A stretch of DNA of 40,385 bases from Thainema sp. (GTDB lineage Bacteria > Cyanobacteriota > Cyanobacteriia > Phormidesmidales > Phormidesmidaceae): the NCBI GenBank assembly GCA_052168235.1, contig JBQLZK010000033.1:36173-76557 (forward strand), given 5' to 3'. This document shows, one piece after another, positions 1-14,386 of the stretch (positions within the stretch are counted from its first letter, which is position 1; each line of letters opens with the position of its first letter). A program made the translations under genes and the position numbers. The notes beneath the pieces are model-generated. The model saw only the letters and a program-made list of their open reading frames with translations, was not told the DNA's origin and did no database searches.

Positions 1-1042
1 CACGTAAAGATGGGGCTTCTCCGCTATCTTTAAGAATATCAATCAATGGCTGTACGGCTGCGCTGTCTCCAAGAGCCCCCAAGGCATAAGCCGCCGCTCC
101 ACGTAAAGATGGGGCTTCTCCGCTATCTTTAAGAATATCAATCAATGGCTGTACAGCGGCGCTGTCTCCAAGAGCCCCCAAGGCGCCAGCCGCCGCTCCA
201 CGTAAAGATCGGTCTTCTCCTCTATCTTCGAGAATATCAATCAATGGCTGTACGGCTGCTTCACTGTCTTTGCCAATTGCACCTAAGGCAGCCGCAGCGC
301 CTCTACGTAATGATGGACTACAATCTTTATCACTGAGAAAGACTAGCAGCACATCAACTATCTGAGCGCCAAACTCATGGAGGCGATACAGAGAATCAAA
401 ATAAGGCTTTTCAATAAGCTGCTTAATCTGATCAATCGTGGGTAGTAATGCCCCATCAAGTGGTGGAAATAAAAAAGGGCTTTCGGAGTCTTCAACCTGA
501 ATCCAGATTCCGGCACTGTAGGGAATATACCTATCGTCATTTGCTGCTGAAAAGAATAGATATCGAGATCCCCCCTCATAAAAGCTATATGGAAAACTCC
601 AGGTACCATCACCTAATATATCGATCGGTTTCAATGAATACCGATCGTCACAAGTTACGGCCAGGGTTTGTCCTTCTAAACCATAGGCTGTGCCTTTTAC
701 TGTAAAGGCTTCTTCAACTTTGATCCAAAGTGGATAAGAAGTAACCTTGATTGGACTAAAAACAATAAATGTGATGGAGTTACTATATGAAGTACCCTGT
801 TGATCTTTTGCTGAAAAGAATAGGTACCGAGCTCCCCACTCATAAAAGCGATTCTGAAAGATCCAACTACCATCGTCAGATATTCTGACCGGTTCCAATG
901 GAAACTGCTCGTCGCAAATCACGTTCAGGGTCTGCCCTTCTAGGCCATAGGCTGTACCAGTTACTATAAAGGTTGCTTGGACTGTGACCCAGGCCGGGTA
1001 GGACTCAATCTTGATTCTACTTCTTGTATCTGAAAGAGCCAT
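1..1042 (-). CDS. Protein with two tandem Ig-like beta domains followed by HEAT (PBS-lyase-like) repeats; 3' end runs off the window
   Basis: Not in the ORF track because it has no stop in the window. Manual translation from ATG 1042 (AAGGA about 10 nt upstream) gives MALSDTRSRIKIESYP...GTAYGLEGQTL.V.CD...(twice)...RYLFFSA, then 33-aa repeats LRGAAAYALGALGDSAAVQPLIDILKDSGEAPS (99-bp DNA period at 1/100/199). Confidence 0.85.
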   Translation of the reverse strand, partial: MALSDTRSRIKIESYPAWVTVQATFIVTGTAYGLEGQTLNVICDEQFPLEPVRISDDGSWIFQNRFYEWGARYLFFSAKDQQGTSYSNSITFIVFSPIKVTSYPLWIKVEEAFTVKGTAYGLEGQTLAVTCDDRYSLKPIDILGDGTWSFPYSFYEGGSRYLFFSAANDDRYIPYSAGIWIQVEDSESPFLFPPLDGALLPTIDQIKQLIEKPYFDSLYRLHEFGAQIVDVLLVFLSDKDCSPSLRRGAAAALGAIGKDSEAAVQPLIDILEDRGEDRSLRGAAAGALGALGDSAAVQPLIDILKDSGEAPSLRGAAAYALGALGDSAAVQPLIDILKDSGEAPSLR

Positions 1043-1531
1043 TACAAGTCTATCCTTTACCTAGTTTTTAGGCATTTAGATTAATCGATGAGATGCATCT
1101 TTACCTAACTTAGAGTCGCTATAAAATTCGAGAAACTTGTGAGAATTGTGGGTATTACGATCGTACTTTGAGCTTGAAGGGTCTGCCGCCATACTAAGCA
1201 ATCACTACTTAATTGTCTGAATCGTACCCGTATTACTCTACCGGAAACATTTTCATAAGCTTTGCTCAATCTTTTATCCACATTGCGTTACAGACTGAGG
1301 CTGGGGGTAAATAACTTAAGATTTTGGGCTCGTATTTAGAGTGTATAGATTGTTACTGGTATCCTACTGAGGATTAGGCAAAGGATGCAACACAGGAGTT
1401 CAATGTTCGGGAATGCCTGCCATTTGAATGGTATTGCAGCCAAATTAATAAGCAAACTCAATTTATCGCTCAGAACCATTAAAGAGCGATAGAGCCTTGT
1501 TCAAAATTTAGGGATTTTGGATAAAGTAGAA

Positions 1532-2485
1532 CTAAATAGATTTCTGCTCTAAAATGGGAGTCAAATACTCTGGAATTCCCGCCATCTGAATGGCAGAGCA
1601 GCCTAACCGATAGGCAAACTCCACCTCTCGCGCTGCCAATAGCGCATCATAAAAAGCCACGGCAAACTCAATTGCAGCCTTGTCGCTAATCGCTCGTTTC
1701 ATCCCTACTACATAGGGAATATGTTGAGCAATCGCCTTCGCTTGAACTGCTGAGTAACAAGCATTTAACACTACACATTCAATCTGATCGCTGAATAGAG
1801 CAAATAAAGCGGCGATGGCTGCTCCAGAAACGAGCTGTGGCTGTCCCACCTCGTCCTCAAATACCAAACCTTCTTCTTGTTCAATATTCGCATCAGTAAC
1901 AACAGTAACCTTACGAGTAGAGGGGGATTCGTTGTCTAACATTTCCCTTCCTACCCCATGACCGCAGAAGTGAACAATCTGCGGCTGATAATCAAGCAAG
2001 GCTCGTCGCAAATCCGTCACCGTTGTTGCCCAACGTTGCTCTAGCCGAAAGCGATTGCGATCGCGAGATCGCTCTAACCCCAATTGCAGCGATCTCACCT
2101 CTTCTGCCAGTCGTAGAGGCGAAGTTCCTTCAGGGTTGGCAGCCAAAACTAGAATCGTCTTGATGTTGGTAGGCTGATCTGGCTGTTGTGTCGCTTCCCA
2201 GGAAGATAATGGATGAGGTACTTCCTGATAGTAAATATTGCCCGTCCCAGTCACATTAGCAATAGTGCTATCTGAGATATTGAATACTGCTCCCTGTACA
2301 TGACCGACTGCCGTCCCACCAGACATTTGTCCAATAGCCTGATTATCATCACCTTGCATCGTTTGCTCAATCTTGGAAGTAGGCACAGATTCAGACTTCG
2401 AAGCTTTATTACGATTGGCAGAAGATGCATCTATCGTGGTTGATTCGGGAATAGATTGGTCGGACTGAGGTGATTGGCTAAACAC
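1532..2485 (-). CDS. Stand-alone CHAT-domain (caspase/HetF-like) cysteine protease with low-complexity N-terminus
   Basis: ILVLAANP, IVHFCGHG (His) and VVLNACYS (Cys) CHAT motifs; GTG start with AAGGA upstream. Confidence 0.9.
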   Translation of the reverse strand: MFSQSPQSDQSIPESTTIDASSANRNKASKSESVPTSKIEQTMQGDDNQAIGQMSGGTAVGHVQGAVFNISDSTIANVTGTGNIYYQEVPHPLSSWEATQQPDQPTNIKTILVLAANPEGTSPLRLAEEVRSLQLGLERSRDRNRFRLEQRWATTVTDLRRALLDYQPQIVHFCGHGVGREMLDNESPSTRKVTVVTDANIEQEEGLVFEDEVGQPQLVSGAAIAALFALFSDQIECVVLNACYSAVQAKAIAQHIPYVVGMKRAISDKAAIEFAVAFYDALLAAREVEFAYRLGCSAIQMAGIPEYLTPILEQKSI

Positions 2486-2562
2486 TGGAGATTACATCCT
2501 TTCTTACTTATTGAATGTTACATGGCTCAATGTCAAACGTTTGGAGGACGATTTCATCTAAA

Positions 2563-4704
2563 CTACCGTTCGACAAAAACTTGAATCTGTTTTGTCACCC
2601 ACTCCTGGCTTGGATCGACCACAATACTGGCAGACCGTTGGGCTTTAGGTGCTATACCCGAATCCTTACCAATCATGGTGAGCAAATAATGAAGTGGATT
2701 AATCCCGTTTGATTCGGTTTGACCGGCAGATCGAGTGGTTATTGTCTCTATCATGTTTTTGAATTCCTCATCCAGTTTGCCTCCTCTCGTGTTGGGCAGC
2801 TCATCTAAGGGCGGTAGCGTTAACCACCGAAAATCCGCTAATCCTTTCTCTACCGCAAATACTTTAATGATTTCCTTAGTCTGTTGATACATAGAGTTAT
2901 CCGGGACTCTTAATTGAAGTAAAACTTTTGTCACAGCACCTTGATCCAGATCAAAGAAAGGAGCTTCTATTCCACCAATAGGAATTTGTGAAATGGCCCA
3001 AGTTGGCTCAAGATCGAGCACTGCCAGTTTTAATGGTTGATGTCCTGTATTCGCTAAACGTAAACAAATGACGTCCTCATGGTGGACAGTGATATTTTGC
3101 GAATCAGGAAAAGAGACTCCTTCTACTGTGAGAATTTCTACATCAAGGACGTTCGCCAACTTTGAGCTAGAGTTATCCAAACTTTCTACCGCTTGATATT
3201 TGGCCAGATGAACGAGTCGATTCACCACTCTATTGGGAGCAGTTGGATCATCGATTGACAGTAGCGGTCTGAGATTCGAAATAGGAATAGCTTTACAAAT
3301 CTCGTAGTTTCCCTTTCGGTCAATTGCAACTTGATAAAGTGCTATTTCTTCCCCTTTCTCTTCCTTAATCCAACCATTGTTCATCAATGCTTGTCGAACC
3401 CTATCGAGAGCGTCTTGCTGGCGATGTACGAGATTGGCTGGCAGTTCATCTTCTAGTTCACCTTCCGTCTTATCAGCAGAAAAACGGACCTTCTGCACGA
3501 GTTCAATCGGTGCAGATATCATTACCGCTGGCGAGCCAGGCTCTAATTCGCCTCTTACTCCAACTCCACCTTCCTCGATCGGTATGATTTTCGCTGTTGA
3601 TTCCGATGCATTCACTTGAGTAAGTTCTGCGATCGCAACTTGTCGAGTTTTATCCGTAAAATCAGTCGTATTGAGGGGGTAGATAGAAAAGCGGGTCCCG
3701 TTGCTTAAGCCCTGTGCTTGCCCAGCATTGATCGTGATCTGATGGTCTGTTATGACTTTGATGACCGTGACTGTAAAGGGTGTCAACCAGGTATCACTGC
3801 CAAAGACTCTGCGATCGCCGTCTCCCAATAAGACAGGCGTTTGTTGGGGTAACTTGCTTTGAATCTGAGCATTAATACGATCGTGCAACAGCTTATACGT
3901 CAAGGGTTGACCACTGATAGCAGCGCTGGTCAACGTATCGATCATCCAGTAAGTAAGTGCGCCATTCTGCTCTGTCCCACCATTGACTGCATATTCATAG
4001 GCGTACTCGTCTGCACGACAGGCCGCTAGCAAGACGTATTTTCGGGTAACTGGTAAACCCGCCGCTGCAATCACTCCATTTTGGGTGAGATCCAACCAAT
4101 TGCGTTCTAATACTTCCAACTCAGCAACCAAGCTGTGCGATAATCTCGGCATGGTATCGGTTTGCCCAGCACTGCGAATCTCCATATCACCACGGGTTTT
4201 CCCCCCAGCATGGCAACAGTCCAGCACCACTGTGACAATTAAGCCTTTATCCGTCATTCGCTTCAGAAGAGTTGCCATCTCAACATCACGCAAATACCGC
4301 CCCGCTTCCGTGTCGCCAATATCCATTGGCACAATCCCTTCGTCTCTGGATTCTTGTTTGAATGGATAAATGGTTGTGGCTCGCCCCCCATGCCCGGCGT
4401 AATGGATATACACCTGTTCACCGGAATGAGCCATTTGGGTAATTACATTGAAAGCTTGGACAATATTGGTGTAGGTTGGTTCCTGATCCGGGGTTAATCT
4501 CATTTCCAGCAGCGCCGCTGCTTCTGGATTGATAGAGGTTAACTTATGAATGCGTTCACCTGGAACCTTCAAAGTCTTTTTGAGAAAGGTCTCAACTAAA
4601 CTAATATCGCGGACTGCCCCCCGCAAGCTTCTATACAAGCGATTGGGTTTGTAATAGTCAATTCCGATCAATAGTACGTGGAGATTTGGCGATTGTTCTG
4701 GCAT
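2563..4704 (-). CDS. Caspase-family (peptidase C14, ortho/metacaspase-like) protease with C-terminal extension
   Basis: LLIGIDYY, LRGAVRD, HYAGHG (His), VVLDCCHAG (Cys), LLAACRADEYAYE, GALTYW, QTP motifs. Confidence 0.92.
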   Translation of the reverse strand: MPEQSPNLHVLLIGIDYYKPNRLYRSLRGAVRDISLVETFLKKTLKVPGERIHKLTSINPEAAALLEMRLTPDQEPTYTNIVQAFNVITQMAHSGEQVYIHYAGHGGRATTIYPFKQESRDEGIVPMDIGDTEAGRYLRDVEMATLLKRMTDKGLIVTVVLDCCHAGGKTRGDMEIRSAGQTDTMPRLSHSLVAELEVLERNWLDLTQNGVIAAAGLPVTRKYVLLAACRADEYAYEYAVNGGTEQNGALTYWMIDTLTSAAISGQPLTYKLLHDRINAQIQSKLPQQTPVLLGDGDRRVFGSDTWLTPFTVTVIKVITDHQITINAGQAQGLSNGTRFSIYPLNTTDFTDKTRQVAIAELTQVNASESTAKIIPIEEGGVGVRGELEPGSPAVMISAPIELVQKVRFSADKTEGELEDELPANLVHRQQDALDRVRQALMNNGWIKEEKGEEIALYQVAIDRKGNYEICKAIPISNLRPLLSIDDPTAPNRVVNRLVHLAKYQAVESLDNSSSKLANVLDVEILTVEGVSFPDSQNITVHHEDVICLRLANTGHQPLKLAVLDLEPTWAISQIPIGGIEAPFFDLDQGAVTKVLLQLRVPDNSMYQQTKEIIKVFAVEKGLADFRWLTLPPLDELPNTRGGKLDEEFKNMIETITTRSAGQTESNGINPLHYLLTMIGKDSGIAPKAQRSASIVVDPSQEWVTKQIQVFVER

Positions 4705-4861
4705 GGTTTGCCTCTAAAACAGCATGTTTGAAGCCAATAATTCAAACCATCATTAAGCATATGACTCAACCCTCAACCACTAAATTGATCAGTAAACCAC
4801 TTTCTGAGCGCTAGAACTAGAGCAACATCGACTACGCTCTGTTAGTGTTTTATCAAATCGT

Positions 4862-5869
4862 TTATGGCATTGTGACCTGTGACATCATGGCTAATGTATT
4901 GGGACCAACAACCCCATCGACCACGAGCCCAGTTTGTTGTTGAAATTGTTTGACGGCTTGCTCAGTATGACTACCAAATACACCATCTACACCAACTAAA
5001 AGCCCGCTTCTTTGTAGTGCAGTTTGAATTCGTTCTATATCAGATCCCTCTAAAAGGGGGGTACTTAGCCGTAACATACGAGGCTTTTGATCCCACGGTG
5101 CAATCTCAAAACCGTTGGCCGGAGACAGCATCAACTTGCTCATTGTAATTCGGCCATAATCTCCATCTTCGGCAATTGGATGACTGGGATTGTTGCGGTT
5201 CCAAAGTCGCTGAAAAGCAAGAGTCGCAATGTTGCGAATATCAAAGCTTCTGCCATTAACGTTGATTGATAGCACTCTGTTTGATCCCTTATAGGTGAAA
5301 TGAGGCTTATCTCCGTTGCCAAACCACTCCCAACCATGTCGCTCCAAATACAAGCGCCAACCTAGATGATCTGCGATATCAATTGCTAAACCAGCTTGGT
5401 GATAGCTTGCGCCTGGTGGTGCCACTACTCGAAAATTGCAGGTGCCGTTATGTTTCCAGGTGTAGAGCAAAAACTGCTGAGCTAAGGTCCGATAAGCCGA
5501 ATTCACGACCATGGTACTGCCTCGATCTTGGATGGCGTTGCGTAGGGCTTCTAAAGCCGCTGGCTGCAGGTAAGGATAAGCAGCACTACCCAACTGGACA
5601 TTTAACCGATCAAAGCTAACCAGTAAATCAGATGAATGACCTGTAGCTTCTTCTAAAATGACATTTACTTCATGGATAGATTGTTGAGATAGCGTATTGG
5701 CAACCTTTGTTGCACAACCTGGAGCATCTTGAACAGGCCCCACAAAACTTGCTCTAGGTGTGGGGCTGTTTTCTTCAATCTCATTGATTACATCACAATC
5801 TTCATGGGCTGGCTCAATCCCATCCATTAAGGGCATATTGTGTTCTTCAGTCATAACTGTTGTCTCCAA
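4862..5869 (-). CDS. M15-family (VanY-like) Zn peptidase with C-terminal peptidoglycan-binding domain(s)
   Basis: SAYRTLAQQ, SYHQAGLAIDI (SxHxxGxAxD), DKPHF; C-terminal VDGVFGSHTEQAVKQFQQQTGLVVDGVVGPNT. Exact start uncertain (TTG 5869 or downstream ATG). Confidence 0.88.
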   Translation of the reverse strand: METTVMTEEHNMPLMDGIEPAHEDCDVINEIEENSPTPRASFVGPVQDAPGCATKVANTLSQQSIHEVNVILEEATGHSSDLLVSFDRLNVQLGSAAYPYLQPAALEALRNAIQDRGSTMVVNSAYRTLAQQFLLYTWKHNGTCNFRVVAPPGASYHQAGLAIDIADHLGWRLYLERHGWEWFGNGDKPHFTYKGSNRVLSINVNGRSFDIRNIATLAFQRLWNRNNPSHPIAEDGDYGRITMSKLMLSPANGFEIAPWDQKPRMLRLSTPLLEGSDIERIQTALQRSGLLVGVDGVFGSHTEQAVKQFQQQTGLVVDGVVGPNTLAMMSQVTMP

Positions 5870-5892
5870 TCAAGTTCTTCTAAAGTAAAGCT

Positions 5893-6798
5893 CTACAGAC
5901 CCAGTGCCTGCCAGGTTTGCGATCCGACGATTCCGTCAACTGTGAGCTGTTCCTGAGTCTGTAGTTGCCGTACCGCTTTTTCAGTGGCTGAACCAAAAAA
6001 GCTATCGGCTCCATCCGGACCCAGATCGAATCCTCTATTGAGGAGTGCCTGCTGAAGATGGCGCACGTCTTCACCCTGCATGAGCGGTCTCGTCAACTTC
6101 AGGACGCGGCAAGCAGTTATTTCATCAAAGACTTCGACCGGGCCGTTATAAGTCAGGAACGGTTCCCAAGGTTGGCTGTTGAATAAGGCTTGTTCGGCAA
6201 GCCGCCGCCGTGTTAGGCCGAGCCAAGGAGTACCACTGACTTTATTCCAACGAGGAAATTGCTTGGCAGCACCTAGATAGTTGCCTTGGTTTAACAGTCT
6301 AAGTAAGGTGGATCCTCTAAAGCCTTTACGCCCAGGGCCAATGTTGAAGCACAAACAAACCAAGGCTGAAAACTGATCGTCATTGACTTCAACGGCAACG
6401 GCATCTTGGACGAATGTTTCAAATTTTTCTAAGTCTTCTCGCAGGAACTGATTGGCTTGAGCTTGGGTAATAGTCATACCACAAAAAACGCCTTGGGTAT
6501 GGCCATAGCCAATTGTCCAAACGCCACCGCCATCGTCATAAGCTTTCAACTTACAACCTTCAAATGTGGTGAGTAATTTAAATCCTTCTGTATTGATGGG
6601 GCGTTCACTGCCTCGTGGGGTTGGGATGTCGGGAGGTAGTTTGCCAGGCGGCGCGGTGGTTAGCGTTGTAGCGGTACTAAATTGTAAGGCTTCGATGATT
6701 AAATCGACTTGGTTTTGAGTATCCGTTGCCTTGATGGGCTGATCTGCTTGATATTCACAAAGCTGACCGTCTGGATACAGTTCGAGTGTTCTGCTCAT
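5893..6798 (-). CDS. GH24 (phage-type) lysozyme with C-terminal peptidoglycan-binding domain
   Basis: FEGCKLKAYDDGGGVWTIGYGHT (E-x8-D-x5-T triad), QFSALVCLCFNIG, GLTRRRLAE; C-terminal GEDVRHLQQAL...VDGIVGSQTW. Confidence 0.92.
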   Translation of the reverse strand: MSRTLELYPDGQLCEYQADQPIKATDTQNQVDLIIEALQFSTATTLTTAPPGKLPPDIPTPRGSERPINTEGFKLLTTFEGCKLKAYDDGGGVWTIGYGHTQGVFCGMTITQAQANQFLREDLEKFETFVQDAVAVEVNDDQFSALVCLCFNIGPGRKGFRGSTLLRLLNQGNYLGAAKQFPRWNKVSGTPWLGLTRRRLAEQALFNSQPWEPFLTYNGPVEVFDEITACRVLKLTRPLMQGEDVRHLQQALLNRGFDLGPDGADSFFGSATEKAVRQLQTQEQLTVDGIVGSQTWQALGL

Positions 6799-6983
6799 AA
6801 ATGGTTTGCCTCATAATGTGGACCTAATGTTGCGACTGTCCAATTGAGGGTTGAAAGATGCTTGCAACGACTTTCAACTAATAGTATATCGGTTGTTTAA
6901 ATGGATTTAAACGAGTCTGTTAGAACAGTTTGCAATCCGGCAGGACTGTTGTATGGCTTTACTAAATAGCTTATGCACAAAGC

Positions 6984-7028
6984 TGTTTATGAACGTGCGT
7001 CCCCGCTGGGGACGCGCGTTCATAAACA
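6984..7028. terminator. 21-bp stem-loop; candidate terminator or mRNA-stabilising REP-like element
   Basis: TGTTTATGAACGTGCGTCCCC-GCT-GGGGACGCGCGTTCATAAACA, one mismatch, intergenic between the Trypco1-like and lysozyme genes. Confidence 0.55.
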
Positions 7029-7132
7029 ATTAAGATCGCTATAGTAATGGTAGTTGAAAGGTATCCGTTAACAAATGCTGTCTGCGGTTGGTGTTCTGTG
7101 GGAGAGCCTCAAGTGGGTGTGGGTAGCCTCGA

Positions 7133-7465: not shown

Positions 7466-7471
7466 GTTGTT

Positions 7472-10400
7472 TTAGTTGTGGTCTTGTGGAATGGATTGAG
7501 CTTCGTTACGGAAATGGATAGGGATGGTAGAGGTTAGAAAGGTGTTAGATGCCCAGTGAAAGAAGTTGTTGATTGAGTTATTGGTTTGTTGCTGTTCTTG
7601 GTAGTCTTCGTAATCATCTGGATAGGGCAGGTTGGAACAGGTTTTGCGATAGGGTTCGTCACCAAGGTAGCGTTGCCATTCCCGAATGGTGAGATTGCGG
7701 GTGAGGCGCTGGCAGGCTTGAGCAATTAAGTCTTCAGTGTGAACGTATCGGATTTGTACTGTACCGTCACTACTGGCAGTCGCCACTCGCTGGCCATCCG
7801 GGCTAAACACAACCGCAGTGACTTTGAAATCGTAGGGTAGTCGGGCAATCTCGGCTCCGCTCTCCGCATCCCAGAGCCGCGCGGCAACGATATCGTTCCA
7901 ACTGGCAGTGGCCACTCGCTGACCATCCGGGCTAAACAAGACCTCATTAACATTAGCATCGTGGAGCAGTTGAGCAATCTCGGTTCCGCTCTTGAAATCC
8001 CAAATTCGCGCGGTCGTATCGTTCCAACTAGCAGTGGCCACTCGCTGACCATCCGGGCTAAACATGACCTCATTGACATTGTCGTCATGGGGCAATCGGG
8101 CAATCTCAGTTCCGCTCTTGGCATCCCAAATTCGCGCGGTCGTATCGTCCCAACTGGCAGTAGCTAGTTGCTGGCCATCCGGGTTAAACACGATTTCATT
8201 GACATTAGCACTGTATAGCAGCCGGGCCATTTCGGCTCCACTCTCGACATTCCAGATCCGCGTGATATCATCTCTGCTCGCAGTAGCGACTCGCTGACCA
8301 TCCGGACTAAATATAATCGCATTGATAGAGGCATCATGAGGTAATTGGGTGATTTTGGCTCCGCTCTCGGCATCCCAAACTCGCGTAGTATTATCATCAC
8401 TCACAGTGGCCACTTGCTGACCGTTGGGGCTGAATATGACTACATCAACATTGCTATCGTGGGGCGGCCGTACAAGTTCTGTTCCGCTCTTGATATCCCA
8501 AATTCGCACGATATTGTCCCAATTGGCAGTGGCCACTCGCTGGCCATCCGGGCTAAGCACGACCTCATTGACATTAGCATCGTGGGAAAGTCGAGCAATC
8601 TCGGCTCCACCCTCGACATCCCAGATCCGTGTGATATTATCCCTGCTCGTAGTCACCACTCGCTGGCCATCGAAGCTAAACACAACCGCAGTGACATTGT
8701 AATCGTGGGAGAGTCGAGCAATCTCGGCTCCGCTCTCGACATCCCAAACCCGCGCGGTATCGTCATCACTCGCAGTAGCTACTTGCTGACTATCAGGACT
8801 GAATATGACTGCACCAACGTCGCCATCATGGAGTAATTGGGCCATTTCGGCTCCACTCTCAGCATCCCAAACCCGCGCGGTATCGTCATTACTTGCAGTG
8901 GCCACTCGCTGGCCATCCGGGCTAAATACAATTTCGTAGGCAACAGCATCATGGGACAGTTGGGCCATTTCGGCTCCACTCTCGGCATTCCAGATCCGTG
9001 CGATATTACTTCTGCTTGTAGTAGCCACTTGCTGGCCATCCGGGCTAAACACGACCTCATAGACAATGTCATCGTGGAGCAGTTGTACAAGTTCTGTTTC
9101 GCTTGCAACATCCCAAATTCGTGCGGTATCATCCCAACTTGCAGTCGCTACTCGCTGGCCATCCGGACTAAATACTACTGTATCAACATCACCATCATGT
9201 AGTAACTGGGCCATTTCGGCTCCACTCTCAGCATTCCAGATCCGTGCGGTATAGTCCCTACTTGCAGTCGCCACTCGCTGACCATCCGGGCTAAATACTA
9301 CTGCATCAACACCGCTAGTGTGGGACAGTCGTACAATTTCGGCTCCACTCTCAGCATCCCAGATCCGTGCGGTATAGTCCCTACTTGCAGTCGCCACTCG
9401 CTGGCCATCGGGGCTAAATACGACCTCATAGACAACATCATCATGGGGCAGTTGTACAAGTTCTGTTCCGCTCTTGACATCCCAGATCCGCACAGTATCG
9501 TCACTACTCGCAGTCACCACTCGCTGACCATCGGGGCTAAACACAACCTCATTGACAGAATCATCGTGGGGCAGCCGTACAAGTTCTGTTCCGCTCTTGA
9601 TATCCCAAATTCGCGCGGTATTGTCATCACTCGCAGTCGCCACTCGCTGACCATCGAGGCTAAACACGACCTGATTGACAACATCATCGTGATTGAAGCG
9701 GGCCTTTTGCGGAGCCATTATCGGATACCCCCGCAGCGCTTCATCAGCATCACCTTTGGCAACCGTTGCTCCAGTTTCTAATAAACGCTTATTAGACTCT
9801 ATCGCTAACAAAATGCTAGTCGATAGCAAACTCGCACTCAACTGTTGCAATGATTTAGCCTGTGCAGCTAACTGTCGTGCCAAACTAATTTGTTGCTGTT
9901 TCTCAGCTTCCTCAGTAGCCGCTTCGGCGACCTGAGTTTGCGCGCGAGAGATCTCAGTTTGCTCTCGCGCAGCCGTCTCTCCTGCTTCGGCTCGTTGCTG
10001 GGCGGCTTCTGCCTGCTGTCGCTGCTCTGCTTCCGCCCGTTGCGCTAAAACCGCCTCTTCCTTTGCTGTTTCCGCTGCTTGTTGCTGTTCCGCTGCTTGT
10101 TGTTTAGCCTCCTCAGCCTCATCCAGCCGTTGATCAGCTATCGTACGTTGCTCCTCTGCAATTTGTTGCTGTTGTCTTGCGTTTTCCGCTTCTTCCTCAG
10201 CCCGTTGAGCTTCGCTTTCGGCAATGTCTTGTTGTTCTTTCGCCTCTTGCAGCGCGTCTTCCACATCTTGTAAAGCAGCAGTTGCTCGTCCTCTTTCAGT
10301 CAATGCCCAAACCGTCAATCCAGATGTAATTCCCAGCAGCAACAACCCCGCTGCCAGCGTTCCCTGCAATCGCCGAATCCGCTTCCGCCAGTTAACTGGC

Positions 10401-11497
10401 AAATTCTCTTTTATCCAATCCCCATCAAACACCCGTTCATAAATTGCATTCCGCACCCGCAGCATTTTGCCGCTTTCCCTCTTCACCACACCCGACAGCT
10501 TCAAGTGCGACTTAATCAGCGACTGTTCCTGATCCGCAACCGCTTGCCGTCCTCGCCAAATATTCTTGTACGTCGTCAACACCGCATATACATCCGGCGC
10601 CCGCTGAGTCAACATATCCCGCACAAACTGCAAGTTGTTGTCTTGCTCACTCATCCCGCCAAAAAACGTGGCTGCGACAAGGCGTTCTACGTCATTCTGA
10701 CTGATCGAGTTTTGGATTTTGGATTTTGGATTTTGGATTTCTTCTCCCACCACCTGACACAACCGCTGCGTCAAATAGGGATGTCCTCCAGTCCAGTCCA
10801 GTACCCAGTCCAGCACCTGCTGCGCTTTCAGCTCTGCTACACCCAGTCCTGCTGCTAGGGGCATTGCTTCGGCCAGCGTGAAATCTGTCAAATCTACCCT
10901 TTCACCCACATTAAACGGCGTCCGATGCGGGTCGCGGATCAGCTCAGTCGGTGTCGCCACACCAATTAGCACAAACGATAAGCGCTCAAATTCCGGATTC
11001 TGCGCCCGTGCCGTATAGAAATAGCGCAGCGCAATAAAAAAGTCGTCCGTAAAATCCAGACTCAGCGTCGTATCAATTTCATCGATAAACACCACAATCG
11101 GCATATCAATTTCTTGCAGCACCACATCCCGAAAAAACTGCGTCATCCGCTGCGCCAAACCTAGATGAGAGAGCTCCTCCCACCAAGCTAGTAGATCGGT
11201 ATCCAAATCAAGCTGATCTTCAACTTCCGTCAGCAGTCCCAAATACCACTCTTCCGGCGATACCTGCGCCCCGATCGGCTGTAGGTCAACAATTACCGTA
11301 CACACCCCTTCCTGCTGGAGCTGGTCCGCCGTCCGCACCATCAGGCTTGACTTGCCCATCTGGCGCGGGGTCAGCACATAGGCAAACGTGCGGCTGCGGC
11401 AGAGTGCCAAAAGCTGCTCATCCGCCCGCCGGGGAATATAAATTCCACCCCCTGCCTGTACGGTGCCACCAACGGTATAGATACTCTGGTTTGCCAT
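7472..11497 (-). CDS. AAA_35 (STAND-like) ATPase - TM helix - coiled coil - 16 WD40 repeats
   Basis: Walker A TPRQMGKSSL, Walker B VFIDEID, TPFNVG, WTGGHPYLTQ; hydrophobic TLAAGLLLLGITSGLTVWAL; EAQ-rich coil; 16 repeats of about 41 aa (HD..V..VVFSPDGQRVATAS.D.TARIWD). Confidence 0.93.
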   Translation of the reverse strand: MANQSIYTVGGTVQAGGGIYIPRRADEQLLALCRSRTFAYVLTPRQMGKSSLMVRTADQLQQEGVCTVIVDLQPIGAQVSPEEWYLGLLTEVEDQLDLDTDLLAWWEELSHLGLAQRMTQFFRDVVLQEIDMPIVVFIDEIDTTLSLDFTDDFFIALRYFYTARAQNPEFERLSFVLIGVATPTELIRDPHRTPFNVGERVDLTDFTLAEAMPLAAGLGVAELKAQQVLDWVLDWTGGHPYLTQRLCQVVGEEIQNPKSKIQNSISQNDVERLVAATFFGGMSEQDNNLQFVRDMLTQRAPDVYAVLTTYKNIWRGRQAVADQEQSLIKSHLKLSGVVKRESGKMLRVRNAIYERVFDGDWIKENLPVNWRKRIRRLQGTLAAGLLLLGITSGLTVWALTERGRATAALQDVEDALQEAKEQQDIAESEAQRAEEEAENARQQQQIAEEQRTIADQRLDEAEEAKQQAAEQQQAAETAKEEAVLAQRAEAEQRQQAEAAQQRAEAGETAAREQTEISRAQTQVAEAATEEAEKQQQISLARQLAAQAKSLQQLSASLLSTSILLAIESNKRLLETGATVAKGDADEALRGYPIMAPQKARFNHDDVVNQVVFSLDGQRVATASDDNTARIWDIKSGTELVRLPHDDSVNEVVFSPDGQRVVTASSDDTVRIWDVKSGTELVQLPHDDVVYEVVFSPDGQRVATASRDYTARIWDAESGAEIVRLSHTSGVDAVVFSPDGQRVATASRDYTARIWNAESGAEMAQLLHDGDVDTVVFSPDGQRVATASWDDTARIWDVASETELVQLLHDDIVYEVVFSPDGQQVATTSRSNIARIWNAESGAEMAQLSHDAVAYEIVFSPDGQRVATASNDDTARVWDAESGAEMAQLLHDGDVGAVIFSPDSQQVATASDDDTARVWDVESGAEIARLSHDYNVTAVVFSFDGQRVVTTSRDNITRIWDVEGGAEIARLSHDANVNEVVLSPDGQRVATANWDNIVRIWDIKSGTELVRPPHDSNVDVVIFSPNGQQVATVSDDNTTRVWDAESGAKITQLPHDASINAIIFSPDGQRVATASRDDITRIWNVESGAEMARLLYSANVNEIVFNPDGQQLATASWDDTTARIWDAKSGTEIARLPHDDNVNEVMFSPDGQRVATASWNDTTARIWDFKSGTEIAQLLHDANVNEVLFSPDGQRVATASWNDIVAARLWDAESGAEIARLPYDFKVTAVVFSPDGQRVATASSDGTVQIRYVHTEDLIAQACQRLTRNLTIREWQRYLGDEPYRKTCSNLPYPDDYEDYQEQQQTNNSINNFFHWASNTFLTSTIPIHFRNEAQSIPQDHN

Positions 11498-11507
11498 ATG
11501 CCCTAGC

Positions 11508-13718
11508 TCATCCGTTTAAATGCTGTTGGAAATACTGCTCATACAGCTGACAGCGAGGCACCACTACCGATCCATCACCGCTACGCCTCACCAGCCCCGC
11601 CCCGCGCAGCTTAAAGAAAATCCGCTCATCTGCACAGGTATGGGTTCGCACCACCTGCAAAAAGCCCTGCACCAGTTCCGGTTTGTCATACATGCGAAAC
11701 AGATGATAGCGCAGGTGATCACCGAAGGGGCCGCGTTCTTTCACCGCTTGGGCAAACAGCTCACTGGCGCTCATTGCTCCCGTCACCACCAAATACAATG
11801 CCTTTCGTACTAAATAGGGATGCCCATTCACCAGTTCCATCAGTCGTTGCAGTTCCGCCACCAATAAGGGGTTGCCGTGGCGCTCATTCAAATCAGCCAC
11901 CTGCACAAACTCAAAATCCGTCAGCTCAATAATTTGCCCCACATTAAACGGCGACTGGTTCAAGTTATCGATTAGCTGATAGGGTTCCGTCGAAGTCACC
12001 AACGCCAAATCAAGCTGTTTCCAAATTTGTTTGATGGCACGGTTGTTATGCCAATTACGCAACATACTAAAAAAGTCCGACCGAAAAGCCGTGTCAAACA
12101 TCGTTTCCACTTCATCCATCGCCAACACCACGGGCTGATCCAGTGTCGGCAGCAGGTATTTACCCACGTAGCGGGTACAGCGCTGAGTATTGCTCAGTCG
12201 CCGCTTCCAATACTCATCCACCTGATCGTCCAAATCCAGCTCATCCGTCAGCCAAGCGCAAAACTCTGGGAAAAAGGTATCTGCATCAGATAGCGATGTC
12301 TTGTCAAACAGTTGGAAATCCAAAAACGCTACCTGCTTGCCCTGCTCCTGCGCCGCCCACATCACCCGACTCAGCAACGAACTTTTACCCATCTGCCGAG
12401 GCCCTTTAATCGTCAGCGTCACCCCTTGCTGCTGAATCGTGCTGATCGCCACTTGATCAAACGATCGCGCCACATAAAACCGCGAATCGGGAGCCATCGT
12501 CCCTTCTGGCAGTTCAAAATTCAATGCTGCTTTCTTACCTGCCTTAGGAATTTGCGCCGACGGCGACGGTCGCGGAATCGCGCTAGCAGTTGATGACTGA
12601 ACAGTCAAGATCTCCGCCTTGCGCTGCAGTGTAGTAATCGACAGCGTTTCTCCCGCCAATGCCCGCTGCAATTCGTCAATCAGGGCAGACGTATCGGCTG
12701 GACTTTCCCAAAACGCCCAGTTAATCGGATCGAGATAAGCACTGAGCGGATACTGAAATGGTTCTCGATACGCTAATCGCACGGGCAAAATCGCCGGACG
12801 GCCGTCCCGACTGCGAGCCAACTCGTGGGCCAGCAAAACTTCCACCTGCACCATTTCACTGCTGACGGCCTGTTCTGACAACAGCACAATCAGCGCATCC
12901 GACTGCTGAATTTCCTGCCTGATATGCTCAACCCAGCGCGTACCCACCAACATCCGCTGGTCAATAAACACCGAATGGGTTTGCCGCAGTGCCTCATAAA
13001 GCTGGAGCGCCACCTCTTCATCAGGCGACACATCTCGCTTGTAGCTAATAAATACCCTCGCTGCTTTGGACGGGGCTGGTGACTCAGACGTTAATGGTTC
13101 AGGAGATATTGATGGTGGTGCAAGCTGAGCCTGCCGAGTCTTCAAAATTGGAATTGACGATCCGGGTAAACTCTCCAAACTCACCCGATTTCGGCCCAGC
13201 TTGTATGCCTGCTCAATCGCAAAGCCAGCACCCAGCGCATCATAAAACCCTGTCGCAAACTGAATGGCCGTGTCATCATTCACCGCCTGATTCATCCCCA
13301 CCACATAGTCGATATGTTGGCAGATTGCCTCAGCCTGCACCTCGGAATAGCAGGCGTTGAGGACAACACATTCCACTGAATCACTGAACAGTTCAAACAG
13401 CTCTGACAGTGCTGCTGTAGAAACTAGCTTGGGGTTGCCATCGTTATCTTCTAGGGCCAGTCCCTGCTCACCATCACCATGTCCCGAAAAGTGAACAAAC
13501 GCAGGCCGCAGTTCCATCAAGGCTCGCTGCAAATCAGCCGGACGAGTTGCCCAGCGAGTAGTGATTTCAAAGTTGTCCCGCTGTTGCGATCGCTTTAGCC
13601 CTTCGGCAATTTCCCGTGCCTCTTCATCTAACCGCAACTTCTCGGTTTCGCGGGGATTTGCTGTAAGGATTAAGATCTTCTTTTTCACAGCACACGAACA
13701 TTGAACAAAGACTTCCAC
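11508..13718 (-). CDS. CHAT - TIR - AAA_35 ATPase fusion protein
   Basis: CHAT VHFSGHG / VVLNACYS; TIR RVFISYKR...SEMVQVEV (putative catalytic Glu); ATPase GPRQMGKSSL, LAMDEVE, QSPFNVG, GHPYLVR. Start may be GTG 13688. Confidence 0.92.
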   Translation of the reverse strand: MEVFVQCSCAVKKKILILTANPRETEKLRLDEEAREIAEGLKRSQQRDNFEITTRWATRPADLQRALMELRPAFVHFSGHGDGEQGLALEDNDGNPKLVSTAALSELFELFSDSVECVVLNACYSEVQAEAICQHIDYVVGMNQAVNDDTAIQFATGFYDALGAGFAIEQAYKLGRNRVSLESLPGSSIPILKTRQAQLAPPSISPEPLTSESPAPSKAARVFISYKRDVSPDEEVALQLYEALRQTHSVFIDQRMLVGTRWVEHIRQEIQQSDALIVLLSEQAVSSEMVQVEVLLAHELARSRDGRPAILPVRLAYREPFQYPLSAYLDPINWAFWESPADTSALIDELQRALAGETLSITTLQRKAEILTVQSSTASAIPRPSPSAQIPKAGKKAALNFELPEGTMAPDSRFYVARSFDQVAISTIQQQGVTLTIKGPRQMGKSSLLSRVMWAAQEQGKQVAFLDFQLFDKTSLSDADTFFPEFCAWLTDELDLDDQVDEYWKRRLSNTQRCTRYVGKYLLPTLDQPVVLAMDEVETMFDTAFRSDFFSMLRNWHNNRAIKQIWKQLDLALVTSTEPYQLIDNLNQSPFNVGQIIELTDFEFVQVADLNERHGNPLLVAELQRLMELVNGHPYLVRKALYLVVTGAMSASELFAQAVKERGPFGDHLRYHLFRMYDKPELVQGFLQVVRTHTCADERIFFKLRGAGLVRRSGDGSVVVPRCQLYEQYFQQHLNG

Positions 13719-14354: not shown

Positions 14355-14386
14355 GTGTCCAAATTTGATTGCGGGTGAGTTGTGCG

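Follow-up and report, generated by a model that had tools for sequence, protein, structure and literature searches.

Neighbouring genes for sensor ATPases, cysteine proteases and peptidoglycan hydrolases may form a single lytic device or may be separate modules that happen to lie together. We investigated this for eight genes at one end of a 40,385 nt stretch of the Thainema sp. contig JBQLZK010000033.1 (hereafter the window), which is a plasmid-like cyanobacterial region and part of an element that carries a relaxase and CRISPR.

Layout and composition of the locus

All eight open reading frames were located on the minus strand (Table 1), and their Pfam matches agreed with the domains and co-orientation reported in a first-pass annotation. 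We distinguish block A (g1–g3, 7133–13718), comprising a CHAT-TIR-AAA_35 protein, a membrane-spanning AAA_35-WD40 protein and Trypco1, from the block B cassette (g4–g7, 1532–6798), comprising GH24-PGBD, M15-PGBD, a metacaspase-like protease and CHAT. The GC3 of g1–g3 was 0.49–0.70, versus 0.36–0.45 for g4–g8, and this contrast looks like separate acquisition of the two blocks, an outcome that the annotation had itself set against its proposal of a single system. Our best explanation is that the window contains two neighbouring protease-effector modules of a kind known from multicellular bacteria, which taken as a whole has about an even chance of being correct. The first-pass annotation had put forward one integrated eight-gene system; on that reading g1/g2 would directly start a g7-g6 cascade, g3 and the hydrolases would be a built-in pore-plus-lysin pair, and g8 would be included. 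The adjacency and shared orientation of the eight genes speak for such a system, and the GC3 break together with the 334-bp gap between g3 and g4 speaks against it.

Table 1. Features of the locus, with positions in the window
Feature	Position	Strand	Description
g1	11508-13718	-	736 aa; Pfam CHAT 1.6e-11, TIR_2 9.7e-20, AAA_35 6.7e-114
g2	7472-11497	-	1341 aa; Pfam AAA_35 5.4e-37 + WD40
g3	7133-7465	-	110 aa; Pfam Trypco1 1.8e-19
Intergenic gap, block A/block B compositional boundary	6799-7132	n/a	334 bp; GC 0.437
g4	5893-6798	-	301 aa; Pfam Phage_lysozyme 3e-44, PG_binding_1 9.3e-18
g4 N-module + linker, codons 1-62	6613-6798	-	ends at R62 before G63
g5	4862-5869	-	335 aa; Pfam VanY 2.2e-11, PG_binding_1 1.3e-19
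g5 leader, codons 1-39	5753-5869	-	ends at R39 before A40-S-F
g6	2563-4704	-	713 aa; Pfam Peptidase_C14 9.8e-16
g7	1532-2485	-	317 aa; Pfam CHAT 6.7e-14
g7 G/N/Q-rich motif, codons 41-73	2267-2365	-	motif HMM
g8	2-1042, open end	-	347 aa; Pfam HEAT_2 / HEAT_PBS

Block A is a Pepco-type module

The g1 protein, the cytosolic partner within block A, consists of a short CHAT protease (H80/C123), a TIR domain and an AAA_35 STAND NTPase with a Walker A motif (GKSS at 444). It matched the PADLOC 'chat' profile (1.5e-20), and its match to SAVED_CHAT is confined to the profile's CHAT portion. Full-length homologues of g1 were found on two Nostoc plasmids, an AAA_35-TM partner coming after the homologue in each case. 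The g2 protein is probably the transmembrane sensor partner, and contains an AAA_35 NTPase, a single membrane segment predicted by hydrophobicity (aa 380–400), a charged coiled-coil-like stretch and a WD40 array, for which both Pfam stretches and motif matches gave 15 repeats instead of the 16 counted originally; the NTPase-then-TM layout was also present in four other AAA_35 second partners.

The g3 protein belongs to the Trypco1/CU044_2847 family (70 bits with the NCBIfam CU044_2847 model, cut-off 23); the name Trypco1 is that used in PMC7159879. The family, now called Pepco, is reported as a protease-activated membrane pore in section 8 of a recent preprint (10.1101/2025.11.14.688446), and by analogy g3 is a candidate protease-activated beta-barrel pore. 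The earlier statement that the locus lacks a holin is true by family name, but g3 is a member of this reported pore family. Since Trypco1 is the Pepco pore-former of that preprint, block A represents a known kind of module, the Pepco/Trypco1-protease-STAND module, and cannot be called undescribed. As in other Pepco (Trypco1/Trypco2)-protease modules, the Trypco1 protein (g3, 110 aa) lies in an operon-like run with a protease (the g1 CHAT) fused to a STAND NTPase, and g2 is a transmembrane STAND partner, such ATPases being named in the preprint as Pepco-associated sensors. Block A differs in that the protease is a short CHAT whereas the one studied is the trypsin-like Avs4, g2 stands between protease and Pepco, two AAA_35 proteins together make up the sensor, and two wall hydrolases are located immediately downstream, with cleavage and pore formation being only candidate activities here.

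Trios or pairs resembling block A were found alone on Nostoc plasmids, which counts against the integrated eight-gene system. One Nostoc plasmid locus (L083) encodes Trypco1, a trypsin-TIR-AAA_35 protein and an AAA_35-TM-WD40-Amidase_3 protein, and is a Pepco module with a wall hydrolase physically fused to the module's sensor, which favours our best explanation and also the integrated system.

The block B proteases and g8

The g6 protein is a metacaspase-like protease (orthocaspase) with an H105/C164 dyad, and the pair R171-G172 was invariant in columns taken from 84 sequences. In an alignment with metacaspases, D33 and D162 match Asp residues of Yca1, and a search of the PDB with the g6 profile returned metacaspases for 10/10 matches (E 1.5e-11 to 2.5e-9). 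Foldseek agrees with this affinity; the model of g6 was poor (mean pLDDT 57). The PADLOC 'caspase' profile matched over the full length (7.2e-41), and beta structure predominates in the C-terminal 400 aa. Orthocaspases cleave after Arg or Lys, according to the review PMC7475262.

The g7 gene encodes a short CHAT protease (H176/C243) that stands alone and has an N-terminus of low complexity; it is matched by the PADLOC 'chat' profile. As annotated previously, the His/Cys dyad is retained in all three cysteine proteases (g1, g6 and g7). Of the 68 loci with sufficient downstream flank, 28 had a CHAT gene on the downstream side of the caspase at a distance of ≤3 kb. In other genomes, NACHT, nSTAND1-WD40 and CHAT proteins share the G/N/Q-rich motif of g7 at their N-termini, and the motif HMM matched at loci L009 (3 genes), L020 and L032 (2 genes). 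Within the window it found g7 alone, and the absence of this signalling-like motif from g1 and g2 argues against an integrated system.

In the g8 protein two repeats of 95 aa precede the HEAT repeats, and the part previously labelled 'Ig-Ig' shows a clear internal duplication (~95 aa) with no Ig family matched in Pfam. It is separated from g7 by 489 bp, and has a GC3 of 0.36, low like block B. Related loci contained only scattered HEAT matches, and as g8 is not conserved beside the cassette its inclusion is unsupported, a further point against the eight-gene system.

Two wall hydrolases with conserved basic sites

The g4 protein is composed of an N-module, a Pro-rich linker, a GH24 muramidase domain (E80, D89, T95) and PG_binding_1, with the catalytic residues kept in 24/24 homologues. 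Its AF2 model (mean pLDDT 83.7) has prophage and phage muramidases as nearest solved folds (e.g. 6et6, 47% identity). The g5 protein has a leader, an M15/VanY-type metallopeptidase domain (H157, D164, H190) and PG_binding_1, and its zinc ligands are likewise kept in 24/24 homologues. No hydrophobic segment was detected in g4 or g5 by hydrophobicity scan, and hence neither has a signal anchor or, as noted in the first-pass annotation, a signal peptide.

The conserved g4 N-module (~48 aa; three strands, helix, strand) is followed by the linker, which runs on to R62, a position with R/K in 23 of the 24 homologues and G/A next; codons 1–62 are a candidate cleaved or tethering module. The g5 leader is acidic with a conserved Cys, and ends at position 39, which is R/K in 21/24 homologues (with Arg one residue off in the remaining 3) and is again followed by G/A, making R39-A40 a candidate cleavage site. 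A similar leader ending in R-G-S/I-F was present in M74-PGBD-GH19 proteins of 3 loci, and C39_2 and M74 proteins have a conserved Arg plus small residue at the domain boundary. LcCaspase, the caspase-like protease of an analogous module, is reported to cut its partner hydrolase at an Arg-Gly motif that 161 homologues retain (10.1101/2025.11.14.688446, section 7), and because the Arg/Lys plus Gly/Ala at the module boundaries of g4 and g5 matches the motif of that caspase-activated hydrolase, we count it in favour of caspase cleavage. R-[GA] is a short motif, and its weight rests only on conservation inside otherwise variable linkers.

The N-module defines a small family, with 49 matches among 1.84 billion representatives. 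In the 19 of these 49 that were scanned, it was N-terminal to GH24 (8), C39_2 (1), SLT (1), GH19 (1, weak) and Amidase_2 (1), and is therefore also found on wall hydrolases of non-GH24 folds. Its presence on unrelated catalytic folds makes a direct block of each active site unlikely, and rather than being a pro-peptide it may serve in docking, tethering or export.

The two enzymes resemble phage holin-endolysin cassettes in pairing a signal-less GH24 muramidase with an M15 peptidase, each with PG_binding_1, and in that such enzymes would reach the wall only through a lesion in the membrane. The GH24 domain of g4 shares 44–48% identity with lysozymes of phages and prophages, g5 resembles Microbacterium phage endolysins in its catalytic part and PGBD, and the best NCBIfam match of g4 was a GTA endolysin model (below that model's cut-off), all of which would fit an origin as chance neighbours, or as a prophage or GTA lysis cassette that has decayed near a caspase gene. 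However, the window has no holin, spanin or phage structural genes, and its conserved neighbours are proteases and STAND sensors. The additional N-terminal modules are absent from phage endolysins, with 0/1413 (g4) and 0/24 (g5) matching phage records covering ≥80% of the query. Gene order and strand recur in 22/62 species-level loci amid unrelated flanks, and 148 small ORFs of 40 hydrolase-bearing loci gave 0 holin and 1 phage structural match. We disfavour this phage or chance origin as very improbable.

Conservation of the caspase-hydrolase cassette

A peptidoglycan hydrolase was found beside the caspase in 35 of the 59 other species with enough upstream flank at the caspase locus, and counting of four families (GH24, M15, C39_2-PGBD and M74-PGBD-GH19) gave 36/60 loci, window included. 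In a strict count on 62 caspase-anchored loci with ≥2.5 kb upstream, GH24 and M15 both occurred as same-strand upstream genes in 22, GH24 only in 5 and M15 only in 2, with 33 lacking both. Many species share the combination of GH24-PGBD, M15-PGBD, caspase and CHAT, and the lack of co-occurrence that the first-pass annotation had named as refuting its proposal does not apply to this core. The hydrolase trait has undergone at least 13 changes (gains or losses) on the caspase tree, and is thus spread across the whole family, with different hydrolase folds filling the slot beside the caspase. Since many caspase loci lack hydrolases, the caspase does not depend on them; none were found near the plasmid-borne caspase homologues in 3/3 inspected, and an alpha/beta hydrolase neighbours the g6-family caspase in 18/51 related loci with full flanks.

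Loci without wall hydrolases, often with an alpha/beta hydrolase instead, would also be expected if g4 and g5 were sensors or regulators, that is cytosolic PGBD enzymes which bind or trim muropeptides from wall damage by phage lysins or predators and switch on the caspase, which then kills via broad proteolysis or other effectors. The absence of export signals would suit this role, and the Pepco preprint (10.1101/2025.11.14.688446, section 8) includes peptidoglycan-binding domains in its list of sensor domains on Pepco-associated proteases. Nevertheless, the catalytic sets of two different enzymes are complete in 24/24 homologues, the slot is filled interchangeably by several unrelated lytic folds, which is typical of effectors and not of one ligand-specific sensor, and the conserved basic site is exactly at the module boundaries. 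We consider a sensor role to be improbable.

A protease/STAND-repeat sensor was present in 28/31 hydrolase-bearing loci with full flanks, and in L013 and L016 the caspase has an AAA_35 pair resembling g1/g2 as its neighbour. Both observations support our best explanation and also an integrated system, as does g3 being the only membrane-acting candidate in the window. Against it, Trypco1 was found in 0/80 related caspase loci, nor was it among the 148 small ORFs. Given the GC3 difference, the absence of Trypco1 from the 80 loci and the unpartnered g7 motif, cooperation between blocks A and B is conjecture, and we regard the integrated eight-gene system as unlikely. Candidate membrane-acting partners were present in 22/31 hydrolase-bearing loci versus 8/20 loci without hydrolases, a point in favour of our best explanation; the 9/31 hydrolase-bearing loci with no candidate membrane-breaching gene count against it, since it offers no route to the wall there.

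The g6 family is almost exclusively found in cyanobacteria, chiefly in filamentous genera, and in relatives the cassette is located among ordinary chromosomal genes. This is consistent with a developmental autolysis device instead of immunity, acting in the death of sacrificial cells (necridia, release of hormogonia, fragmentation of filaments) or in an 'autolytic' death of filamentous cyanobacteria under stress. An autolytic type of death in which peptidoglycan is lost early is described in the review PMC7475262, which also proposes orthocaspase cascades. Conversely, the genes that accompany the cassette (STAND NTPases, TIR, CHAT-NACHT and Pepco) are hallmark features of conflict systems (PMC7159879), the cassette has a patchy distribution with its at least 13 gains or losses, the window copy is on a relaxase- and CRISPR-bearing element, and the caspase family also occurs in the unicellular or colonial Xenococcaceae, Crocosphaera and Chamaesiphon. 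A purely developmental role is in our view quite unlikely.

Comparison with known protease-effector systems

The LcCaspase/LcHydrolase pair of Lysobacter capsici is similar in that a caspase-like protease gene adjoins a latent-hydrolase gene (the latency being inferred here), that Arg then Gly is kept at the proposed cut sites, and that the 18/51 related loci place an alpha/beta hydrolase beside the caspase. It differs in that peptidoglycan hydrolases (GH24, M15) are proposed as substrates here instead of an alpha/beta hydrolase, which the window lacks, and in the proposed removal of one N-terminal module where an internal piece is excised in LcHydrolase. The alpha/beta hydrolase of the relatives is LCAT-like and, at ~480 aa, larger than the ~33 kDa implied for LcHydrolase.

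A CHAT-to-caspase cascade has a published precedent in the SAVED-CHAT/PCaspase of type III-B CRISPR (10.1101/2023.06.23.546230), with which the cassette shares a CHAT gene adjoining a caspase-family gene, the initiator-executioner logic, and the matches of PADLOC 'caspase' to g6 and 'chat' to g7. In contrast, there is no SAVED domain here (the SAVED_CHAT profile matched over the CHAT part only), the window gives no sign of a Cas10 or cyclic-oligoadenylate step, and wall hydrolases are the proposed targets instead of the known sigma factor, inhibitor and kinase. Wall-degrading effectors recruited to multi-peptidase conflict systems via a small N-terminal adaptor were predicted before for alphaproteobacterial trypsin/NucA systems, the effectors there being lysozymes and papain-like peptidoglycan peptidases linked to EAD1 (PMC7159879, section 32). 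Those systems differ in phylum, core (NucA and trypsin) and adaptor, the partner here being metacaspase-like, and no EAD or Death-like family was matched in g4 or g5 with Pfam.

Proposed mechanism

Gene content, catalytic residues, cross-species synteny, conserved basic sites, the modular N-domain and metacaspase affinity are the observations on which we base a model of caspase-released wall hydrolases with Pepco as membrane breach at this locus, a model that is about as likely as not to be right; all cleavages, the zymogen state of the hydrolases, their access to the wall, the trigger and the biological role are its inferred parts. In block A, g2 would cross the membrane, its WD40 part probably being outside the cytoplasm, while g1 would contribute CHAT protease and TIR. 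Assembly of this paired AAA_35 STAND sensor would, by analogy, let CHAT trim the Pepco protein g3, which could then form a pore in the inner membrane. In block B a CHAT initiator (g7, or elsewhere a CHAT fused to the sensor) would activate g6, and this metacaspase-like, presumably Arg/Lys-specific executioner would remove the N-terminal module of the cytosolic muramidase g4 after R62 and the leader of the cytosolic peptidoglycan peptidase g5 after R39. The released enzymes would break down the wall after a breach of the membrane, which Pepco would cause here and maybe a lipase-like alpha/beta hydrolase or small membrane protein elsewhere. The interpretation given in the first-pass annotation is partly supported, by the recurrence of the core cassette, its sensor company and the CHAT-caspase precedent, but the unity of the blocks, the inclusion of g8 and the novelty of block A are weakened or unsupported. 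As a whole, the locus suggests a hitherto undescribed protease-triggered self-lysis device, by which a triggered cell would lyse, either as abortive defence or as programmed death in the filament.

Eight co-oriented genes at the start of the window

The first 13.7 kb of the window contain eight minus-strand ORFs (g1 to g8), and the architectures proposed for them in the first-pass annotation were borne out by Pfam (see the table), with amendments to two of them. The WD40 repeats of g2 are present, in 15 copies as counted by Pfam and motif matches instead of the proposed 16, and the internal duplication of g8, previously labelled Ig-Ig, was recovered, but the duplicated part matched no family. 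All three proteases have intact His/Cys dyads (g1 H80/C123, g7 H176/C243 and g6 H105/C164), a hydrophobic segment is absent from both g4 and g5, in agreement with their proposed lack of a signal peptide, and g2 has a single hydrophobic segment at aa 380–400. No holin families or genuine small membrane ORFs were found in nucleotides 1–13718, and the earlier statement that holins are absent stands by family name, with the rider that the Trypco1 protein g3 is Pepco, which has been reported to be a membrane-toxic beta-barrel. A gasdermin reading of the system was rejected, as no gasdermin family was present among the Pfam and PADLOC matches of the 10–11 ORFs scanned in 1–19099.

Two of the genes are repetitive at the DNA level. 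The g8 gene, which is open at the window edge, contains a 99-bp tandem repeat (2.6 copies, 93% match) encoding near-identical HEAT repeats, and a 123-bp periodicity in g2 (15.6 copies) corresponds to its WD40 repeats and gives rise to many long antisense or off-frame ORFs, which are almost certainly not genes.

Features of the window and of related loci (coordinates are those of the window unless a locus is named)
Feature	Coordinates	Strand	Description
g1		minus	CHAT-TIR-AAA_35 (Pfam)
g2		minus	AAA_35, then WD40 repeats (Pfam)
g3		minus	Trypco1 (Pfam)
g4		minus	GH24 Phage_lysozyme + PG_binding_1 (Pfam)
g5		minus	VanY/M15 + PG_binding_1 (Pfam)
g6		minus	Peptidase_C14 (Pfam)
g7		minus	CHAT (Pfam)
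g8	2–1042	minus	HEAT repeats (Pfam)
g8 tandem repeat	1–253
g7 motif	2267–2365		aa 41–73
g6 R171-G172	4191–4196
g2 periodicity	7761–9691
Off-frame ORF, example	8345–8836	plus
ATPase	14387–15514		ParM/FcmB-like
Relaxase	16427–19099		TrwC
Cas6	19140–20306
CRISPR arrays (three)	20902–21581, 25465–26434, 35125–36142		closely related repeats of ~35–37 nt, units of 70–75 bp
TPR protein	22062–24296
HEPN/nucleotidyltransferase pair	24262–25007
23S-rRNA-IVP-family proteins (two)	27820–28846
Cas2	28864–29208
RT-Cas1	29142–31349
HTH-STAND protein	31492–32910
Uma2 nuclease	33045–33716
Cas1 fragment	37266–37766
Pentapeptide protein	in 14387–40385
Recurrent caspase neighbour	related loci		CHAT-NACHT, ~885 aa
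Recurrent caspase neighbours	related loci		Caspase-nSTAND1-WD40 or nSTAND1-WD40, 1100–1900 aa
Recurrent caspase neighbours	related loci		TPR-CHAT, CHAT-TPR, CHAT-WD40, CHAT-AAA_35
Recurrent caspase neighbours	related loci		second caspase; caspase-FGE-sulfatase fusion
Recurrent caspase neighbour, candidate membrane-acting partner	related loci		lipase-like (LCAT/PGAP1-like) alpha/beta hydrolase, ~480 aa
c8, candidate membrane-acting partner	related loci, e.g. L018 7550–8092		150–180 aa, hydrophobic C-terminal segment with many small residues
c9, candidate membrane-acting partner	related loci		450-aa multi-pass protein
Split GH24 gene	L004 6682–8921
Split M15 gene	L067 7364–9584
Interrupted or frameshifted hydrolase gene	L008 7912–8810
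pNsp_e trio	L083 6103–12995		Trypco1, trypsin-TIR-AAA_35, AAA_35-TM-WD40-Amidase_3

Gene neighbourhood of the caspase

Comparative genomics strongly supports an association of wall hydrolases, caspase and CHAT protease, as found in block B of the window (g4 to g7). The g6 family (~710 aa) is conserved over its full length. Of 8000 scored candidates, 1471 matched at E ≤ 1e-3, and those that carry names belong to Leptolyngbya, Nodosilinea, Nostoc, Phormidium and genera like these. A scan of one genome per species gave at least 115 caspase loci, of which the best 80 were kept and searched by tblastn with the window's proteins under strict length thresholds. Among these best 80, 62 loci include 2.5 kb or more of sequence upstream of the caspase, and the upstream side encodes, on the same strand, both GH24 and M15 enzymes in 22, GH24 only in 5, M15 only in 2 and neither in 33. 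A CHAT gene lies within 3 kb downstream in 28 of the 68 loci of the same set with at least 1.5 kb downstream, 25 times on the same strand and within 600 bp of the caspase; in the window the spacing between g6 and g7 is 77 bp. Clustering of all locus ORFs, with Pfam scans of the cluster representatives, revealed further hydrolases in the slot beside the caspase, namely a PGBD-Peptidase_C39_2 protein in the usual M15 position (7 loci) and a Peptidase_M74-PG_binding_1-GH19 fusion (3 loci). With these four families counted, a wall hydrolase adjoins the caspase in 36/60 loci, window included. On the caspase tree the hydrolase trait undergoes at least 13 changes, and is thus dispersed over all major clades. 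Sensor-type neighbours, but no annotated hydrolase, accompany the three g6 homologues inspected on plasmids.

The catalytic parts of g4 and g5 are endolysin-like, with prophage and phage muramidases as the nearest solved folds to g4 (e.g. 6et6, 47% identity over ~147 columns), and their leaders were not found in phages: none of the 1413 phage records matching the GH24 part and none of the 24 matching the M15-PGBD part cover at least 80% of the query. In the plasmid collection, 80% of the GH24 query is likewise covered by none of 116 matching records. The flanks of the cassette vary by locus and consist of ordinary housekeeping genes, and the 148 small ORFs of 40 hydrolase-bearing loci included no holin, no Trypco family and a single phage structural match, whereas a phage lysis cassette has its holin (and spanin) in a phage context. 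Neither chance adjacency nor a decayed prophage, a reading that was rejected, explains a pairing that recurs in differing flanks among these loci, without holins and with N-terminal modules that the matching phage records lack.

Some hydrolase genes are damaged. The GH24 gene of one locus is split by ~1.3 kb containing a 406-aa ORF, the M15 gene of another is also split by ~1.3 kb, and a hydrolase gene in a third is interrupted or frameshifted. In some lineages, then, the cassette is in decay or has been broken up by insertions.

The caspase is a metacaspase-like protease

A PDB search with the g6-family profile returned metacaspases only (10/10, E 1.5e-11 to 2.5e-9), and the family stretches G-A-V-R-D, H-Y-S-G-H-G-G and D-S-C-H-S-G-G pair with the corresponding Yca1 motifs in the profile alignment. 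H105 and C164 of g6 (the latter within D-C-C-H-A-G-G) are invariant in 84/84 aligned sequences and align to Yca1, in the HxSGHG and DxCHSG dyad contexts of metacaspases. D33 and D162 do not vary either, and both are aligned with Asp residues in Yca1, at positions which presumably form the acidic S1 pocket that gives metacaspases their preference for a basic P1 residue. Foldseek likewise ranked metacaspases first with an AF2 model that is poor (mean pLDDT 57) and was used for the protease-domain fold only; in the same poor model the beta-rich C-terminal 400 aa produced nothing beyond weak Ig-like or PapD-like matches.

Caspase homologues of the orthocaspase kind are described as preferring Arg/Lys at P1, and a Microcystis orthocaspase as processing itself at an Arg (PMC7475262), and g6 would be expected to cleave after Arg/Lys. 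A caspase-like protease is reported to cut the alpha/beta hydrolase next to it at a pair of Arg-Gly sites, which are conserved in 161 homologues, and the resulting fragments are toxic (10.1101/2025.11.14.688446, section 7). Consistent with this cleavage rule, four hydrolase families have a conserved R-[G/A] where their modules meet. Within g6 itself, R171-G172 lies seven residues past the catalytic Cys and is invariant in 84/84 sequences, making it a candidate activation site, either for self-processing or for cleavage by CHAT.

Leaders of the hydrolases and a portable N-terminal module

In alignments of 24 homologues for each enzyme, the GH24 triad of g4 (E80, D89, T95) and the M15 zinc ligands of g5 (H157, D164, H190) are invariant. 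The catalytic domain of g4 is preceded by a conserved N-terminal module of ~48 aa (hereafter N-module), for which AF2 gives a confident model of three strands followed by a helix and one more strand (pLDDT 85–89), and then a Pro-rich linker with Arg/Lys at position 62 in 23/24 sequences, mostly in a P-R-G-S context; the sole exception is a sequence without the N-module altogether. The leader of g5 is acidic, has a conserved Cys and terminates in [R/K]-[A/G]-S-F, with Arg/Lys at position 39 in 21/24 and an Arg one residue off in the remaining three. A g5-type leader ending in R-G-S/I-F was also present in the M74-PGBD-GH19 proteins. In the C39_2 proteins, the linker that joins PGBD and catalytic domain contains a conserved [S/T]-R-[A/G/S]. 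By these features g4 and g5 look like latent enzymes.

No Pfam or NCBIfam model matched the N-module, and a word-indexed search limited to the N-module of the GH24 enzyme returned the window's own protein as sole match. A profile search of 1.84 billion representative proteins gave 49 matches at E ≤ 1e-3, many of them short fragments, and 19 of these were scanned with Pfam. Eight of the 19 contain Phage_lysozyme, with or without PGBD, and other wall-hydrolase folds were found once each: Peptidase_C39_2, SLT transglycosylase, Amidase_2, GH19 (below the family cut-off) and Glucosaminidase + Amidase_3, in which the N-module match is weak and internal. The remaining six have no Pfam family, and three of them have a motif in common which may be reminiscent of L,D-transpeptidase-type enzymes. 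Examples of the N-module on other folds are P0149, P0153, P0158 and P0163. In clear cases the N-module is located at the extreme N-terminus. Since it travels between unrelated wall-hydrolase folds, it more probably acts as a handle than as an active-site plug specific to one fold, which tempers a simple 'pro-peptide' picture; its role could be docking to the protease, tethering or sequestration, or some export route.

Sensor-type neighbours and the g7 motif

The proposed combination of a sensor, a protease cascade and wall hydrolases held up at the level of the family, with the particular sensor of the window being one of many alternatives (see the table for recurrent neighbours). Among 51 non-window loci with full flanks, a protease/STAND-repeat sensor gene is present in 28/31 with hydrolases and 16/20 without, and the alpha/beta hydrolase in 18/51 (11/31 with and 7/20 without wall hydrolases). 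Two loci (L013 and L016) have AAA_35 pairs resembling g1/g2 beside the caspase.

Before its CHAT domain, g7 has a G/N/Q-rich motif (I.Q...GD.NQ.IGQ..GG.V), which is found again in loci L009, L020 and L032, at the N-terminal ends of neighbouring NACHT, nSTAND1-WD40 and CHAT proteins. This arrangement resembles the NLR-effector signalling motifs described in 10.1101/2020.01.06.895854: in BASS pairs the same motif is found on the effector and on the N-terminus of the adjacent NLR, and the g7 motif recurs on adjacent NLR/effector genes in L009 and L032 but is unpaired in the window. An HMM of the motif detected no second copy across the 40-kb window, g1 and g2 included, so the natural activator of g7 may be located elsewhere in the genome. 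A likeness of the g2 N-terminus to the motif was considered and rejected, as the HMM misses g2 and the stretch is part of its AAA_35 domain.

Reaching the cell wall

Cytosolic lysins require a membrane lesion to reach their substrate. Three candidate membrane-acting partners were found in related loci: the alpha/beta hydrolase, c8 and c9. At least one of them is present in 22/31 hydrolase-bearing loci versus 8/20 without hydrolases, and c8 was detected with hydrolases only (8/31 versus 0/20), in counts that ignore relatedness. Nine hydrolase-bearing loci have none of the three, the contig ending early in some. The c8 proteins (L018, L026, L028, L030, L058, L062, L063, L067 and L074) have a conserved [R/K]-[A/G]-[A/S] site and are usually encoded just past a caspase-nSTAND1-WD40 gene; they matched no family in Pfam or NCBIfam, and in the ESM Atlas unnamed clusters only. 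They may be EAD/EACC1-like, by likeness to the written description of EACC1 (PMC7159879). Homologues of c8, c9 and the alpha/beta hydrolase are absent from the window (for the last, by tblastn of the whole window), leaving Pepco (g3) as its only candidate for membrane breach.

Block A is a Pepco module

The g3 protein (110 aa) matches Trypco1 across profile positions 1–98 of 98 (1.8e-19) and CU044_2847 of NCBIfam above cut-off, and ends in a short, charged, Pro-containing tail. Pepco is reported to be a beta-barrel that becomes membrane-toxic once a neighbouring protease trims its C-terminus (10.1101/2025.11.14.688446). The CHAT protease of g1 is fused to TIR and AAA_35 and belongs to the same gene run as g3, with g2 in between, so that the two are not immediately adjacent. 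Block A (g1 to g3) is thus a member of the Pepco/Trypco1-protease modules, unusual only in its use of CHAT and its AAA_35 pair.

Full-length g1 homologues were found on two Nostoc plasmids, in each case followed by an AAA_35-TM partner (one with GUN4, the other without a recognised domain) and with no hydrolases nearby. On plasmid pNsp_e of Nostoc sp. ATCC 53789, a Trypco1 gene is followed by genes for trypsin-TIR-AAA_35 and for an AAA_35 partner that carries an amidase, a trio which is an independent hint of a link between Pepco modules and wall hydrolysis. A membrane segment follows the NTPase in each of the five AAA_35 second partners examined, g2 among them, and their repeat domains, as well as the pNsp_e amidase, are therefore probably extracytoplasmic.

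Two blocks on a putative mobile element

The GC3 of g1–g3 is 0.49–0.70, in the range of most other window genes (0.56–0.71), versus 0.36–0.45 for g4–g8, and the break coincides with the gap of 334 bp that separates g3 from g4; by that measure, block B with g8 differs in history from block A and the backbone. Promoter and terminator scans gave counts equal to shuffled expectation (16 versus 16.5 and 13 versus 13.2), which say nothing on operon structure. None of the best 80 of the at least 115 caspase loci contains Trypco1. This, the standalone block A homologues on Nostoc plasmids and the lack of a window partner for the g7 motif argue that blocks A and B are separable modules that are neighbours here by happenstance, possibly to mutual advantage. 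The fusion of all eight genes into a single system, as envisaged in the first-pass annotation, is doubtful on these grounds and on that of GC3.

Judging from its gene content, the remainder of the window resembles a plasmid or some different mobile element, and is rich in defence genes. Cas10 or other CRISPR effector genes were not recognised among the window ORFs scanned, and megablast of nucleotides 1–13800 against plasmid records gave no match.

Relation to known systems and biological significance

Block B would work like the known modules of caspase and latent hydrolase, with the difference that the alpha/beta hydrolase of those modules is absent from the window. It would also be alike in logic to the CHAT-to-PCaspase cascade, both having CHAT and caspase genes in one cluster (10.1101/2023.06.23.546230). 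The SAVED_CHAT profile of PADLOC matches g1 and g7 at positions 288–449 of 498, which is the CHAT part, and Pfam detected no SAVED domain in either; block B is therefore not a member of the SAVED-CHAT/PCaspase cascade. The nearest printed idea is that an EAD1-linked lysozyme and also a peptidoglycan peptidase of the papain-like kind may be effectors in alphaproteobacterial trypsin/NucA systems (PMC7159879, section 32). Full-text literature searches found neither the N-module nor a cassette of the GH24/M15-orthocaspase-CHAT type described. The word 'lysozyme' is absent from the main text of 10.1101/2025.11.14.688446, where peptidoglycan figures only as a binding domain on proteases; its supplementary effector lists may already name wall hydrolases.

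A mechanism of zymogen activation and lysis, which we infer throughout, is plausible. In its full form we put it forward tentatively and with less than even confidence: in filamentous cyanobacteria an NLR-like sensor would act through CHAT on the metacaspase, which would remove the N-module from cytosolic peptidoglycan hydrolases and so gate autolysis. The N-module would then be a previously unnamed family marking latent wall hydrolases of at least five folds and, with a protease-opened pore (Pepco here), these enzymes would be the host's own equivalent, armed by proteolysis, of the holin-endolysin pair of phages, and could underlie the 'autolytic' death type and the lysis of sacrificial cells in filaments.

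Protease-activated death effectors are an emerging general logic of bacterial immunity, and those listed to date comprise nucleases, lipase-like hydrolases, pore-formers and regulators. Should wall hydrolases be a further class, caspase signalling would be tied directly to bacterial cell lysis. The hydrolases described here would, if the proposal is true, be the first concrete substrates of cyanobacterial orthocaspases. A new regulatory module for cytosolic lysins would likewise be defined, and a mechanism provided for bloom lysis, for filament fragmentation and for the early disappearance of peptidoglycan when cyanobacteria undergo programmed death.
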